Shown one piece after another: positions 3,473 through 7,596 of a stretch of 64,000 nt of DNA. Positions within the stretch are counted from its first letter, which is position 1. Every line of letters starts with the position of its first letter. The notes beneath the pieces were generated by a model, which was given only the letters and a program-made list of their open reading frames with translations, was not told the DNA's origin and did no database searches. The stretch spans positions 10,766 to 74,765 of the forward strand of contig CAYJQX010000004.1 in the NCBI GenBank assembly GCA_964372755.1, written 5' to 3'. Both the position numbers and the translations under genes were made by a program. This DNA is from an uncultured Candidatus Saccharibacteria bacterium. Lineage in GTDB: Bacteria; Patescibacteriota; Minisyncoccia; UBA9983.

Positions 3473-3588
3473 TCTTTCCATATGAGGATGTCGGACGGAG
3501 GCATAGGACGATATTAAGTTTTGACTCAGAGGAGTATCTTTAGTACTCTGATTTTGGGGTATATTGATTAATGTGGTTTAGAATTATT

Positions 3589-3672
3589 GCAGGGATGGTG
3601 GAGTGGTCAATCACAACAGACTGTAAATCTGTCGGCCTACGGCCTACGCAGGTTCAAATCCTGCTCCCTGCA
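3589..3672 (+). tRNA. tRNA-Tyr (anticodon GTA), with a long variable arm
   Basis: The 7-bp acceptor gcaggga/tccctgc and the anticodon loop ctGTAaa are hand-folded. There is a long variable arm (tcggcctacggcctacgc) and a T-loop ggttcaaatcc. Confidence 0.85.
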
Positions 3673-3719
3673 TTGAAATAAAAAGGAGATTCTCACAGCA
3701 CCTATGTTTTTAAAAAGGC

Positions 3720-3747
3720 TTGCTTCCTAGCTTCTTTTGTGTATAAT
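3720..3747 (+). promoter_or_regulatory. Putative sigma70-type promoter for rpmG (TTGCTT-16-TATAAT)
   Basis: TTGCTT at 3720-3725 and TATAAT at 3742-3747 are separated by a 16-nt spacer. The element ends 11 nt upstream of the rpmG ATG. Confidence 0.4.
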
Positions 3748-3757
3748 TTGGCTTGTT

Positions 3758-3916
3758 ATGTCACAAGACTTTCTAATCAAACTTCAGTGCGCTACCTGCA
3801 AACGGGTGAACTATTGGAGCCGTAAAAACAAGAAAAAAGTGGAGCGCAAAATTGAGCTCAAGAAGTTCTGTCGTTGGTGCAAAAAACAGACTATACACAA
3901 GGAGGGAAAGAAATAG
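3758..3916 (+). CDS. rpmG: 50S ribosomal protein L33 (52 aa). It is absent from the ORF track because it is shorter than 60 aa.
   Basis: The translation is MSQDFLIKLQCATCKRVNYWSRKNKKKVERKIELKKFCRWCKKQTIHKEGKK. It has the C-x2-C...C-x2-C zinc-ribbon pattern and the KHTxHKE tail typical of L33. The tRNA-Tyr / rpmG / tRNA-Trp order is a classical conserved arrangement. Confidence 0.85.
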   Translation: MSQDFLIKLQCATCKRVNYWSRKNKKKVERKIELKKFCRWCKKQTIHKEGKK

Positions 3917-4010
3917 GTTTCGAAAAAGAAGGGTTTCTGAAAATTTAGAAAAATCGTCAACATTATGGCGATTTTTTGATTTTTGGCTATAATAAAAGAG
4001 GCTAAAATAT

Positions 4011-4081
4011 GGGGGTTTAGTTAAGTGGTACCCGCCCGACTGAATGATCTCTAAGGCTTTAGTCGTTCGGGCGGGTAACGG
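4011..4081 (+). other. tRNA-like 5' fragment (pseudo-tRNA-Trp leader) interrupted by a GC-rich hairpin. It is not a foldable tRNA.
   Basis: gggggtttagttaagtggta (4011-4030) resembles the 5' acceptor/D region of the downstream tRNA-Trp (gggggtgtaggcttaacggtaa). An 8-bp stem cccgcccg/cgggcggg (4031-4038 and 4068-4075) follows. Then taacgg resumes the D-loop. No 3' acceptor partner exists. A TATAAT lies at 3988-3993. Confidence 0.4.
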
Positions 4082-4128
4082 CGGTCTCCGAACTTAGAAA
4101 TGAGTGAGTGATAGTTTTTAAAAAAAAT

Positions 4129-4203
4129 GGGGGTGTAGGCTTAACGGTAAACTGCCTCTCTCCAAAAGAGGATTTTCAGGTTCGAGTCCTGGCACCCCCG
4201 CCA
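4129..4203 (+). tRNA. tRNA-Trp (anticodon CCA), with the 3' CCA encoded
   Basis: The acceptor gggggtg/caccccc is 7 bp. The anticodon stem is cctct/agagg with loop ctCCAaa. The T-arm is tcagg-ttcgagt-cctgg. The sequence ends in a discriminator g plus CCA. Confidence 0.8.
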
Positions 4204-4766: not shown

Positions 4767-5726
4767 TTAGGAAATCCTAGGGGTTTTTATTTTTTCAAAG
4801 ATTTTCTCCACCTCCGTTTTATTTTGCGGATTAATCCACCAGATGTTCTTATTTCTCTTAAACCATGTCATTTGCCTTTTGGCGTAGGCAAAAATTTCTT
4901 TTTCCAAAAGGGCGGTCATTTCTTTCTTTGTTATTTTCTTTTGAAGGTATCTGGCGACATATCGGCACTCAAGTCCTAATTCCTCGCATCTTTTCCAAGT
5001 AATTTTTCTTGATAATCGCAGATTTTTTATCTCATCAATCATCCCCGTTTTTATCCGATGAAGAAGCCTTACATGAATTTTTTTCTTAAGAGTTTCTATC
5101 TCCGGTTTTAATCCGATAAATAAAACATTTTTCTTGCTTGAGGGATTTTTTGGAAGAGAAGGGGACTCCCCGATAGCTTTGGCGATTTCAATGGCTCTTA
5201 TAAGTCTTCTCGGGTTGTTCTCATCTATATTTTTTGCCCTTCTTGGATCTATTCTCTGAAGTTCTTTGAAAAGTTCTTGAGAAGATTTCTTTGTTAGGTT
5301 TTTTCGAAGTGTCCAGTTTGGTGGAACATTTGGAATAAAAGTTTTCCCCAAGATAGCGTCAAGATAAAGCCCTGTGCCGCCACAGACAATGGGTATATTG
5401 CCTCTTGAGGTGATTTCATTTAGCGCTTTTTCTCCATCTTTTTGAAAATCAGAGACAGAATATATTTTTTTCGGGGCCACAAAATCTATCAAGTGGTGGC
5501 GGACCCCTTTGTATAAAAATTGTTTTTTTTGAGAGTGGTTAGACCATTTCCCCTCTATTTTTCCACTAGTCAAATTCAAACCCTTGTATACTTGTCTTGA
5601 ATCAGCGGAAATTATTTCGCCTTTTTTCCCGAAAGGGAGACTTTTGGCGATTTTTATCGCCAGTTCGCTCTTGCCTGACGCTGTAGGGCCTAAAATAACG
5701 ATTATTTTGGTTTTTAGCACAACCAA
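4767..5726 (-). CDS. miaA: tRNA dimethylallyltransferase MiaA
   Basis: The P-loop IVILGPTASGKSELAIKIAK is present and MiaA-like architecture is found throughout. The track start is a TTG; a GTG two codons downstream is also possible. Confidence 0.9.
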   Translation of the reverse strand: MVVLKTKIIVILGPTASGKSELAIKIAKSLPFGKKGEIISADSRQVYKGLNLTSGKIEGKWSNHSQKKQFLYKGVRHHLIDFVAPKKIYSVSDFQKDGEKALNEITSRGNIPIVCGGTGLYLDAILGKTFIPNVPPNWTLRKNLTKKSSQELFKELQRIDPRRAKNIDENNPRRLIRAIEIAKAIGESPSLPKNPSSKKNVLFIGLKPEIETLKKKIHVRLLHRIKTGMIDEIKNLRLSRKITWKRCEELGLECRYVARYLQKKITKKEMTALLEKEIFAYAKRQMTWFKRNKNIWWINPQNKTEVEKIFEKIKTPRIS

Positions 5727-5758
5727 AGATTAGCTCATTTCGACTGACTTGAAAACCC

Positions 5759-5786
5759 TTGACAAATTATAGAATAGGTGTATAAT
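5759..5786 (+). promoter_or_regulatory. Near-consensus sigma70 promoter (TTGACA-16-TATAAT) driving a noncoding region
   Basis: TTGACA at 5759-5764 and TATAAT at 5781-5786 are separated by a 16-nt spacer. No protein gene lies downstream on this strand before the convergent PurD-like gene. Confidence 0.6.
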
Positions 5787-5792
5787 GCTAGC

Positions 5793-6237
5793 CAGATGAT
5801 TTAAATGCCTTTTTTCCAGCGGGAATCCGACTACGGATTCCCAGAAAGGAGGAAAAAATTTGAAAGTTTCTTTTTAAGCGCCACCGGCTAATGGGCGCAA
5901 TGACATAAATGAGCCGGAGTCGCAACCTTACGGGATCGGCAAGGTAGGTAGCTTGCACTCGTAAGGGATGTGGCTGAAGATTTTCAGGATAAAGTCCGAA
6001 ACGGGAGTGGCTTGATCGGCGCGACGGAGTTTCTCTCCATTTGCCATCGACACTCTACTTTATTCTGAAAATCTTCTTAAAAAATTTATAAATATTTTTT
6101 TGACCCCCGACGAAAGTCGCGGAGCCACGAGATCCACGTATTTATTCAGGATGGACTGCGCCAGAAGCGCGGCACTGGATAAATGGATACTCAAAGCTTC
6201 TCGATGATATAAAGTAGTCGGGGGTTTTGTTTTTTTA
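5793..6237 (+). ncRNA. Candidate structured noncoding RNA of unassigned family, about 440 nt, running from the promoter to a GC-stem plus U-run terminator
   Basis: There is no ORF above 28 aa on this strand. Structural elements are listed in order. A perfect 9-bp hairpin gggaatccg-actac-cggattccc sits at 5821-5843. A strong SD plus a 5-codon uORF follows (aaaggagg N7 TTG AAA GTT TCT TTT TAA). Nested helices ccttacg...cgtaagg and gcaag...cttgc are present. A GAAA-tetraloop hairpin cgac-gaaa-gtcg sits at 6108-6119. A long-range stem cccccgac/gtcggggg is followed by ttttgttttttt. Confidence 0.35.
6104..6237 (+). terminator. Putative Rho-independent terminator on the + strand (8-bp GC stem closing a large structured insert, then a U-run). 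It abuts the stop codon of the convergent gene.
   Basis: cccccgac at 6104-6111 pairs with gtcggggg at 6217-6224. The U-run ttttgttttttt follows at 6225-6236. On the minus strand the stem is not followed by a U-run. Confidence 0.45.
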
Positions 6238-7596
6238 ATAAGTCTGGAGATACCCCCAAGTGTGGAGCCTATCGCTATCATATGACCACTTGGCGCCAAT
6301 ATCGGTGCGATAGAGCATGTTTGGGATGACAATATTTTTGACTTTGGCGTAAACGCTTTTGCGGGCGTCCTCCACCGTGGTGCCGGTGTCGGCTACAACC
6401 ATCAAAACTCCCGATTGGCCGGCGATGCGCATAGTGCCATTATCGTACCAGACATCTTCTATGTGGATGCCTTCGTAGTCGGGATCATGTTTTTTAAAAA
6501 CAATAGCCAAATCTTTATAAACCTGAATAAGATCGCTGTTGCCTCCCGATTTGGCGAAATATGATGGCACCAAAATACGCACGCCTATCTGGAAGCCTTT
6601 TTTTGTTTTGAGCTCAAAATTTTCCCCTGAAGCCAGTTTGTAGAGCCATTCGCCGGCAGGCATGGAAATACCTTCTTGCTGTATTTGGATAGTCGGATAA
6701 CCGAAACGGGATGTCCATTCAAGAGGATAAATGCCTTTGCCGTTTACGATGCAGTTGATGTCTATATAGCCCACATATCCGGATTCGCGAAGAGCCGGAA
6801 GAGCTTTTTCTAAGGTGGCCTTAAAAATATTATTGGGTCTGCTCCAATACATCAGAGTGCCCATCTCGCCTGTCATCGGGCCGATTTCACCGGCAAAAAT
6901 TCTTTTGTGTTCGAAGTTGATGTTTATAGGGTAGATAAAATCATAGCCGTTGAAAAAAGCGCCGACGCCGATTTCCACGCCCGAGATAAATTTTTGAAGA
7001 ATAAATTTGGAAACCTTTTTTTCCCAGACATTTTTGTTTTGTTCAAAGAGCTCAATCATCTCCTTGCCGTCCTCGTCTTCACCGATAAAGAAAAGACCGC
7101 TTCCGCCCGGAGGGGTGAGACCGCTTGGTTTAAAAACATAACGGCCCGGATTGTCGCGGATAAAATTTATGGCTTCATTGTAGCTTTCGAAATTTTGATA
7201 GGGCAGAACATTGACCCCCAGTTTTTTTAACTCTGATTGGCCAAAATCTCTGTCGGCCTCCAAGCGATCGGTATAGACGCTTCCACCCACGACCTTCTTG
7301 CCTTTTTTTCGGAGCTTGTCGGCGATCTCGCCGAATTCAATATCGTCAAAAACAATCACATCGGCCCAATCCGCGTGTGATTCCCAATTGTCCACTTTTT
7401 GCACGAAGCCGTTATACACATCGGCATCGTCTTTGTTTTTTATATAAACTTTAACTTCGTTTCCTTCTTTTGCCACATGCCATGCCAAATCCCCACTTAA
7501 CGATTCCCACGAGACGAAAAGGAATTTTTTTGGCGCAGAAGGGCTTTTTCCGCCGTTGCCGTTTTCCTCCAGAGAAGCGCCGTTGCCGTTTGCCAT
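6235..7596 (-). CDS. PurD-family ATP-grasp protein (phosphoribosylamine--glycine ligase-like) with a divergent N-terminal motif and a low-complexity N-terminal tail
   Basis: The protein aligns by eye with E. coli PurD. EHKRIFAGEIGPMTGEMG corresponds to DHKRVGDKDTGPNTGGMG. IDINCIVNGKGIYPLEWTSRFGYP corresponds to [22 protein letters not shown]. The conserved N-terminal SGGREH is replaced by WESLSGD. The first 25 aa (MANGNGASLEENGNGGKSPSAPKK) are low-complexity. Confidence 0.7.
   Translation of the reverse strand: MANGNGASLEENGNGGKSPSAPKKFLFVSWESLSGDLAWHVAKEGNEVKVYIKNKDDADVYNGFVQKVDNWESHADWADVIVFDDIEFGEIADKLRKKGKKVVGGSVYTDRLEADRDFGQSELKKLGVNVLPYQNFESYNEAINFIRDNPGRYVFKPSGLTPPGGSGLFFIGEDEDGKEMIELFEQNKNVWEKKVSKFILQKFISGVEIGVGAFFNGYDFIYPININFEHKRIFAGEIGPMTGEMGTLMYWSRPNNIFKATLEKALPALRESGYVGYIDINCIVNGKGIYPLEWTSRFGYPTIQIQQEGISMPAGEWLYKLASGENFELKTKKGFQIGVRILVPSYFAKSGGNSDLIQVYKDLAIVFKKHDPDYEGIHIEDVWYDNGTMRIAGQSGVLMVVADTGTTVEDARKSVYAKVKNIVIPNMLYRTDIGAKWSYDSDRLHTWGYLQTY

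Follow-up and report, generated by a model that had tools for sequence, protein, structure and literature searches.

Several described systems place a very short open reading frame (ORF), a strong Shine-Dalgarno (SD) sequence or a pseudoknot in the path of the ribosome. Leader-peptide attenuators of the ermC, cat and cmlA type combine a strong SD with a very short ORF ahead of a structure that the ribosome must open, and the bar minigenes of phage lambda consist of an SD followed by an ORF of a few codons. Transfer-messenger RNA (tmRNA), an abundant RNA of ~400 nucleotides (nt), contains a short internal ORF, pseudoknots and a stop codon beside a structured element, while frameshift and read-through signals present an H-type pseudoknot at the mRNA entry side of a translating ribosome. 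The preQ1-I riboswitch, which lies near an SD, is built from a first helix of 5 base pairs (bp), a second helix formed by the hairpin loop and downstream sequence, and an A-rich third loop of ~12 nt. In Gram-positive bacteria, stalled-ribosome stabilisers of the STAB-SD type, of which that of B. thuringiensis cryIIIA is identical to the SD GAAAGGAGG discussed below, are located at the 5′ end, where a bound ribosome could protect the transcript. Here we analyze a candidate RNA gene at approximately 5793-6236 (+ strand) of a 64-kb window (64,000 nt of contig CAYJQX010000004.1, positions 10,766 to 74,765, from an uncultured Candidatus Saccharibacteria bacterium, assembly GCA_964372755.1) that shares features with all of these systems.

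The locus also differs from each of them. In contrast to the attenuators, no regulated gene lies downstream, two members of the family (L263 and L233; L numbers are our handles for contigs and genomes) being standalone, and the structure is a pseudoknot with a conserved loop instead of a set of alternative hairpins, while the peptide is not conserved. The lambda minigenes are not known to have a conserved pseudoknot associated with them, and the family described here also occurs in bacterial chromosomes and archaeal 5′ untranslated regions (UTRs). Unlike tmRNA, the RNA carries neither a tRNA-like domain nor a conserved tag, and its signals are those of canonical initiation (SD and start codon) rather than of trans-translation. 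Compared with frameshift and read-through pseudoknots, the spacer to the stop codon is 0 nt, and a conserved slippery site, a consistent downstream frame and a long ORF are all absent. The resemblance to preQ1-I is not accompanied by an Rfam match or by queuosine or metabolic genes, and the SD is situated upstream of the pseudoknot, not inside it. Finally, a start codon, a mini-ORF and a conserved pseudoknot come after the SD here, unlike in the STAB-SD stabilisers, and some members have no cargo.

The combination of an SD, a mini-ORF whose sequence is arbitrary and a pseudoknot that bears a conserved loop and is positioned exactly at the stop codon has not been described before, and we found no description of such a module in the literature. 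Members of the candidate phyla radiation (CPR; Patescibacteria) have small, poorly understood genomes in which few non-coding RNAs are known, and in this window the strongest promoter in 64 kb drives an RNA without a database match. It is highly probable that the RNA is a genuine structured RNA of a novel family. Our favored interpretation, held with moderate confidence, goes further and describes ~5793-6236 (+) as an independently transcribed structured RNA gene whose SD, mini-ORF and pseudoknot form a ribosome-engaging module. The family is defined by this 5′ module, consisting of a strong SD, a mini-ORF of 4-7 codons of non-conserved sequence and an H-type pseudoknot with the loop NAURACAUAAAU. 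In the window RNA, hairpins particular to the lineage extend over ~320 nt behind the module, and the 3′ end is terminator-like.

The pseudoknot core and its mini-ORF

As judged by sequence comparison, the most conserved element of the RNA is an H-type pseudoknot at 5878-5917 (+), identified through covariation in 17 sequences. Its first helix, S1, pairs the 5′ arm GCGCC (5878-5882) with the 3′ arm GGCGC (5894-5898) over 5 bp; its second, covarying helix, S2, pairs CCGGCU (5884-5889) with AGCCGG (5912-5917); and the conserved loop L3, AAUGACAUAAAU, occupies 5899-5910. Positions 5866-5917 form the sole long block that is nearly identical between the window and its relatives. Together with the SD and mini-ORF, the conserved core spans 5844-5917 and had escaped an earlier reading of this stretch that was made from the letters alone (the sequence-only reading).

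The sequence of S2 is wholly different between lineages, while complementarity is retained. Besides CCGGCU/AGCCGG, the pairs CCGGUU/AAUCGG, GUACUG/CAGUAC, GGGCAU/AUGUCC, GCCCA/UGGGC, UGUAAU/AUUACA, CCACGU/ACGUGG, CAGAC/GUCUG and CUUAC/GUAAG are found, and two close relatives differ by GGGAUG/CGUCUC versus GGGGUG/CGCCUC. When a tight geometry is imposed (no more than 4 nt separating the 5′ arm of S2 from S1, and likewise no more than 4 nt separating the loop from the 3′ arm of S2), S2 reaches at least 5 bp in 18 of 58 unique instances, whereas 2000 permutations gave 5.1 on average and 12 at most. An alignment under register control, comprising 17 sequences of CPR, phage and metagenome origin, points in the same direction: 96.8% of the pseudoknot cells form a standard pair, versus 63.8% in shuffles and at most 45.5% in slid controls, and 9 of 11 pairs are changed on both sides (shuffled mean 6.1), values matched by none of 500 shuffles. 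The S1 variant GCGCU/GGCGC, which contains a G-U pair, fits the + strand only.

A strictly invariant 12-nt loop was rejected, as the apparent invariance is partly an artefact of the search patterns. A freer scan, in which the first five loop positions were left open, reveals variable positions and yields the consensus N-A-U/G-R-A-C-A-U-A-A-A-U: position 1 is free, positions 3 and 4 are restricted (U/G and G/A, respectively), and one member has a G at position 8. Across bacteria, phages and archaea, S1 hardly varies and the loop is conserved at positions 2 and 5-12, with S2 and the remainder varying; no conserved sequence is present 3′ of S2 among the instances.

Other interpretations of the loop and its surroundings were discarded. 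A start-stop ORF AUG-ACA-UAA within the loop is rejected because the loop variants AAUAAC, UAUAAC, UAGGAC and GAUAAC contain no AUG. A phage attachment (att) site or a mimic of a clustered regularly interspaced short palindromic repeat (CRISPR) is incompatible with a covarying S2 and a variable loop length, and an archaeal TATA box is unlikely, given that a perfect SD lies between the loop and the start codon.

Upstream of the pseudoknot, the SD GAAAGGAGG (5844-5852, +) is located 7 nt before the start of a mini-ORF, TTG AAA GTT TCT TTT TAA (5860-5877, +; MKVSF), the stop codon of which directly abuts S1. Of the 16 independent bacterial and phage lineages that were tabulated, 12 have an AAAGGAG-type SD at a distance of 29-50 nt upstream of S1; it is absent in the L214, L271, L155/L240/L251 and L011 instances. 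Among the bacterial and phage members carrying a mini-ORF or read-through ORF, an AAAGGAG-like SD is placed at −29 to −40 relative to the pseudoknot. The mini-ORF starts at −15 to −24, counts 4-7 codons (8 in L309) and stops at −3 to −1, again abutting S1. This arrangement is seen in the window, L009, L010/L299, L063, L220, L245, L254, L257/L295, L233, L263, L306 and L309. With the stop at −3, an SD and an in-frame start are found in 8 of 9 independent lineages, whereas shuffled upstream sequences give a mean of 0.17 and a maximum of 3 in 5000; where the triplet at −3 is CAA, the ORF runs through the pseudoknot to a UAA in the loop.

The encoded peptides (MKVSF, MFFKDSL, MFFKDSI, MRFCS, MYRLEK, MTRFKR, MSWFKR, MRFRI, MKCQM and MLKK, and among later finds MRRFRI in L306 and MEMNWHEK in L309) are unrelated between lineages, which suggests that translation itself, and not its product, is selected. 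The last sense codons are not conserved either, and the stop is retained even in L010/L299, where it is UGA as opposed to UAA elsewhere. Programmed −1 frameshifting or read-through was rejected, as there is neither a conserved slippery site nor a consistent frame relation. The SD and the five-codon MKVSF frame had been noticed by the sequence-only reading; both are present, and rather than being incidental, they are a conserved component of a module also found in phage RNAs.

Further members of the family were sought in public collections using the 17-mer GGCGCAATGACATAAAT and relaxed versions of it, that is, via sequence patterns and not via an unbiased model; a first genome scan with the pattern ACCGG...17-mer gave no matches. 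The pseudoknot arrangement was recovered in IMG/VR viral contigs, in JGI metagenome contigs and in three named archaeal genomes (Methanosuratincola, Hermodarchaeota and Bathyarchaeota), and many other pattern matches were discarded as chance occurrences in coding sequence. Annotated phages and plasmids contain no match to the core; only the AT-rich promoter matches Firmicutes phages. The module always occupies a 5′-proximal position, downstream of a strong promoter. L263 and L233 are built from SD, mini-ORF and pseudoknot, preceded by a promoter or 5′ hairpin and closed by a canonical terminator; no ORF follows downstream, which implies that the module itself is the functional unit. In L006 it heads a GC-rich structured RNA of 550 nt. 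In a group of phage contigs (L005, L007, L063, L217, L245, L257 and relatives), it forms a unit of ~150 nt that has a promoter of its own, sits among repeated strong-promoter cassettes and precedes a ~115-aa gene weakly resembling a Ren-like exclusion protein.

S1 and the loop are found ~30 nt ahead of genes encoding large secreted or surface proteins in archaeal and sediment contigs; in these, an SD-like sequence is formed by the S1 loop itself, S2 is weak and a consistent mini-ORF is missing. The copies from phage early regions carry the SD and mini-ORF as well, and the archaeal 5′ UTRs share the core in part, through the pseudoknot.

Three instances in named archaeal genomes (L195, L203 and L208) comprise the S1 hairpin and loop only, the motif preceding a signal-peptide gene in L203 and L208 and a 43-aa membrane protein in L195. 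Many sediment contigs (L218, L219, L222, L226, L230, L232, L238, L241, L252, L265, L297 and others) carry a nearly identical cassette of ~75 nt, ATGGAGGGGCTTCAG-AGCGCC-loop-GGCGCAATGACATAAAT-ACCCTGTT-AGGAGGTGA, before many different genes for large secreted or S-layer-like proteins, suggesting a reused expression or 5′-UTR module for surface proteins.

The candidate RNA gene and its counterparts in related Patescibacteria

The sequence-only reading had singled out an orphan, near-perfect sigma70 promoter at 5759-5786, and this observation is borne out: TTGACA-16-TATAAT (+) matches the consensus at 12 of 12 positions, is the sole perfect match in the 64-kb window and does not arise in 100 dinucleotide shuffles. 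From its position, transcription is predicted to start near 5793 (+). Upstream, the region is flanked by miaA (4767-5726, −; PF01715). The + strand of 5793-6237 folds with −166.6 kcal/mol, compared with −121.6 ± 5.9 for shuffled sequences (z = −7.64), and the − strand folds less well (z = −5.91).

In the minimum-energy fold, the pseudoknot is preceded by a 5′ hairpin and followed by four domains, all on the + strand. The 5′ hairpin (5808-5852), also detected as inverted repeat I5, has an inner stem of 9 bp (5821-5829/5834-5842) and an outer stem in which CCUUUUUUC (5808-5816) pairs with the SD. H2 (5918-5975) is a three-tier hairpin. H3 (5976-6076) is a long irregular hairpin with a base of 20 bp, corresponding to inverted repeat I1 (5976-5995/6057-6076, 95% complementary), and H4 (6079-6100; inverted repeat I4) is AT-rich. 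The closing multi-branch domain, H5 (6102-6236; inverted repeat I7), is bounded by a GC-rich outer stem of 9 bp, ACCCCCGAC/GUCGGGGGU (6103-6111/6217-6225), and leads into the U-run UUUUGUUUUUUU (6225-6236), which abuts the stop codon (6235-6237) of a convergent ATP-grasp gene (6235-7596, −). Stem and U-run together give the RNA a terminator-like 3′ end. The stem and U-run are conserved, but a simple scan for consensus terminators made no call there, as the closing stem encloses ~105 nt. Read on the − strand, H4 and H5 could also terminate the convergent gene.

The 9-bp hairpin and the closing stem with its U-run, pointed out by the sequence-only reading, are present, as is the long inverted repeat, according to an inverted-repeat search and the sequence itself. 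Its choice of the 5′ 9-bp hairpin and of a GNRA hairpin, cgacGAAAgtcg, as key helices did not hold: both are lineage-specific, and the latter is unused in the minimum-energy fold and absent from relatives. Likewise, its statement that ~440 nt contain no ORF above 28 aa fails when GTG and TTG starts are allowed, as frames of 32 aa (5970-6068) and 35 aa (6100-6207) then exist, but stands insofar as none is conserved. Protein coding was rejected on either strand: + strand ORFs do not exceed 35 aa and are not conserved, and indels and hairpin swaps break every frame in relatives.

The ATP-grasp protein assigns the window to Patescibacteria, and its clustering at 90% identity identified four further contigs. 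The complete locus, in the order ParB, ATP-grasp gene, 760-nt spacer and miaA, is present in L009, L298 and L299, and L001 and L010 contain its two halves. TTGACA-17-TATAAT occupies the equivalent position in L009, L298, L299 and L010, and the stem and U-run at the 3′ end are kept in L009, L298, L299 and L001 (GUCGGGGGGAUUUUUUUGU). The RNAs of this sister lineage (L009:3440-4015, L298:4034-4607, L299:1763-2334, L001:3600-4029 and L010:1-328) have a predicted full length of 572-576 nt, versus ~445 nt in the window, and are 48-52% identical to the window RNA, although the neighboring protein is 90% identical; the full-length versions in L009, L298 and L299 are 78-89% identical among themselves. 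Each version folds far better than shuffled sequences, with its domains arranged in the same order. In the sister lineage, the 5′ hairpins are different and longer, H2 has a counterpart of similar size at the same position but of unrelated sequence, and the base helix of H3 and an equivalent of H4 (helix 19 of the consensus fold) are present. Indels of at least 4 nt and swaps of whole hairpins separate the sister RNAs, even between strains of one sample.

The consensus fold of the sister lineage comprises 181 pairs, 8 of which show changes on both sides, compared with 2.9 ± 1.3 in shuffles (none of 500 reaching 8) and 0-1 in slid controls; two of the compensatory pairs within this lineage lie in H2. 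These compensatory changes, drawn from three sequences, lend modest support to the fold. In the H3 base, L009 differs from L298/L299 (and L001) solely by exchanges of G-C for G-U and of U-A for U-G, which keep pairing on the + strand only and thus indicate a structure on that strand. With this, the suggestion of the sequence-only reading to look for conservation upstream of miaA in related genomes was fruitful: promoter, terminator and domain layout are conserved there, and helices carry compensatory changes.

The sister RNAs are mosaics, in which peripheral hairpins are exchanged (including between L001 and L010 from the same sample) and framework helices are fixed. Such mosaicism suggests recombination or a very fast turnover of peripheral hairpins.

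No known RNA family accounts for the locus. Rfam 15 returned five tRNAs only for the 64-kb window at gathering score, noise only for 5650-6350 at E ≤ 10, and tRNAs and noise only for the relatives and the phage and archaeal instances. The failure of the sequence-only reading to recognize ribonuclease P (RNase P), tmRNA, signal recognition particle (SRP) RNA or a riboswitch is matched by the silence of Rfam at E ≤ 10 and a negative ARAGORN search. As for leader-peptide attenuators, an SD and a short ORF do stand directly upstream of an RNA structure, but no regulated gene follows on the same strand, the next gene being convergent, and L263 and L233 end in terminators.

Proposed ribosome coupling and alternative explanations

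How the module might work is suggested by its spacing, considered in the light of established ribosome footprints and the known resistance of pseudoknots. The footprint of an initiating ribosome extends ~15 nt beyond the first base of the start codon in the P site. A ribosome initiating on the mini-ORF, the start codon of which lies 15-24 nt upstream of the pseudoknot, would have its leading edge at the base of S1. For the stop codon at −3 to enter the A site, the mRNA channel would have to accommodate the 5′ arm of S1 in full, so that each translation event would unfold the pseudoknot. Since H-type pseudoknots are classical obstacles to the ribosomal helicase, which they are able to resist, the pseudoknot should in turn slow or park the ribosome on the mini-ORF. 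The module would in this manner couple the fold of the RNA, and probably its stability or protection from 5′ exonucleases, to ribosome engagement, and in the window RNA, pairing of the SD with 5808-5816 could gate initiation. We put this coupling forward tentatively as the mechanism; if true, it represents a new way to link translation and RNA structure outside mRNA.

Several considerations weigh against the ribosome-engaging interpretation. The start and end of the RNA and translation of the mini-ORF are predictions, and initiation may be inefficient or regulated, as in the minimum-energy fold the 5′ hairpin pairs the SD in its outer stem. In the covariation test, the register of S2 was picked by complementarity. 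Support for the 3′ domains comes from only 3-4 sequences, and domain-wise MAFFT/RNAalifold alignments of window and sister lineage are unreliable inside hairpins; for these reasons, the 3′ domains are conserved in architecture but not proven pair by pair. A single mechanism may not fit all members, since the archaeal instances, with their weak S2 and lack of a consistent mini-ORF, lie in 5′ UTRs of secreted-protein genes. A conserved single-stranded loop would be superfluous in a simple roadblock and speaks for an additional, specific partner. With the loop unexplained by ribosome coupling, aptamer, ribozyme and ribosome-docking readings retain an appreciable probability.

The broadest of these would see in the pseudoknot a new functional RNA core, common to CPR bacteria, phages and archaea, through which RNA fate or translation is linked to some signal, be it as a new aptamer, a new ribozyme or a structure with specific ribosome docking. 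We regard this as possible but somewhat doubtful. If it applies, the ~445-nt CPR RNA would act as a major RNA of these organisms, regulatory or structural in nature. Whichever reading applies, the core of 45 nt is small enough for direct biochemical and structural tests.

A narrower version, to which we assign a still lower likelihood, holds that the pseudoknot is a ligand-binding aptamer, riboswitch-like with a preQ1-I-like fold, or a small self-cleaving ribozyme, with the mini-ORF acting as its read-out or being a mere neighbor. Conservation of S1 and loop across bacteria, phages and archaea, with the rest varying, is typical of aptamers and catalytic cores, and the 5-bp S1, the 5-7-bp S2 and the A-rich 12-nt loop resemble preQ1-I and pistol. 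Set against this, the preQ1, pistol, twister and hatchet models and all other riboswitch and ribozyme models of Rfam are silent at E ≤ 10. The likeness to preQ1-I (H-type pseudoknot, 5-bp P1 and A-rich 3′ tail) is one of fold only, as there is no match to the conserved aptamer (RF00522) and no queuosine or preQ1 gene in the context, and neither pistol nor any other ribozyme family gave an Rfam match at that threshold. Moreover, the contexts (standalone RNAs, phage early regions and archaeal surface-protein genes) are not metabolic, and no conserved cleavage site or expression platform is found 3′ of S2. Should the loop nevertheless bind a ligand or catalyze a reaction, it would define a new class of riboswitch or ribozyme.

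The module could also be a plain 5′ stabiliser, in which ribosome and pseudoknot together block a 5′-to-3′ exonuclease and the function resides in the variable 3′ part of the RNA or, in archaea, in the downstream gene. The identity of the SD with STAB-SD, the constant 5′-proximal position of the module downstream of strong promoters and its placement, in archaea, ahead of genes whose large secreted or surface products carry signal peptides would all fit. We nonetheless consider this explanation unlikely, as L263 and L233 are essentially module plus terminator and leave no cargo to stabilise, and as it does not account for the conservation of the loop.

Compatible with a strong promoter, a strong SD and an ORF of 4-7 codons is a minigene RNA resembling those of the lambda bar loci, acting through heavy translation with peptidyl-tRNA drop-off or ribosome tie-up in phage host takeover; the phage group with the module among repeated promoter cassettes upstream of a weakly Ren-like gene would fit as well. 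It is very improbable for this family, however: a reduced CPR genome that carried such a gene on its chromosome behind its strongest promoter would harm itself, the last sense codons are not conserved, and conservation of the pseudoknot is not required.

Only marginally credible is the proposal that there is no RNA gene at all, but a spacer with a fortuitous promoter, a bidirectional terminator for the ATP-grasp gene and incidental hairpins. The possible action of H4 and H5 as terminators on the − strand, the good fold of that strand (z = −5.9) and the lineage specificity of several hairpins are what such a spacer would offer. They are opposed by the conservation of promoter position and sequence in relatives, the covariation of the pseudoknot across unrelated contigs, with G-U pairs that fit the + strand only, the mini-ORF statistics, which argue against chance, and the maintenance of 500-760 nt in a compact genome.

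The sequence-only reading had left the choice between a divergent housekeeping RNA and a novel small RNA; conservation and covariation uphold the latter, and a highly divergent tmRNA, RNase P RNA, 6S RNA or SRP RNA is the least probable explanation, in spite of the very strong promoter, the length of ~450 nt, the tmRNA-like pairing of a short ORF with a pseudoknot and the RNase P-like box AAAGUCCG, because there is no Rfam match at E ≤ 10, ARAGORN is negative, no tRNA-like domain is present, the ORF has its own SD and start codon and a peptide that is not conserved, the box is absent in relatives, and the module family is rare and patchy instead of universal. Specifically, ARAGORN found no tmRNA, standard or permuted, in the window or homologous loci; the window RNA has no tmRNA-clan match at E ≤ 10, and its mini-ORF, with its own SD and TTG or ATG start, encodes no conserved peptide that could serve as a tag. 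RF00010 and RF00011 (RNase P) gave no match in the window region at E ≤ 10, and the box at 5992-5999, which the sequence-only reading had compared to RNase P, is not conserved in L009, L298 or L299. The 6S and SRP RNA models matched neither at gathering score nor at E ≤ 10.

Neighboring genes and additional loci

The RNA gene lies among housekeeping genes, with no sign of a prophage. About 1.6 kb upstream, tRNA-Tyr, a 59-aa ORF (3737-3916) and tRNA-Trp form a tight cluster (3588-4203), the ORF being one that we take, by eye, to be an L33-like ribosomal protein gene. tRNA-Leu and parB are found 2.5 kb downstream.

In L155, L240 and L251, the pseudoknot motif is located ~90 nt before a tRNA gene. 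This tRNA gene (L240:872-989 and L155:11396-11517) carries an insertion of ~62 nt in its anticodon/variable region; Rfam scores it as tRNA with 33 bits on L240, and ARAGORN finds no tRNA on L155. The T-arm and ACCA end in L155 and L240 were considered as part of a tmRNA, and rejected as such since they belong to this neighboring tRNA gene with its long insertion.

Among protein homologues at 75% identity, synteny is different and the RNA is not nearby. A different RNA of ~165 nt, without an Rfam match or the pseudoknot motif, is encoded divergently from miaA in L008 (1-386, − strand relative to miaA at 387-1355; MiaA 62% identical). Its promoter reads TTGACA-17-TACACT, its fold is GC-rich (z = −3.7) and its terminator is strong.

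The convergent ATP-grasp gene had been described as PurD-like, yet GARS_A reaches only 56 bits, GARS_C remains below cut-off and a GARS_N domain is missing, and it may encode a ligase with a role other than purine synthesis. In the relatives at 75% identity, the gene is grouped with glycerate kinase-like, phosphoenolpyruvate (PEP)-utilising and enolase genes. One homologue, P0106, measures 793 aa and includes a LAGLIDADG-type domain (PF14528), suggesting that an intein or homing endonuclease has been inserted.

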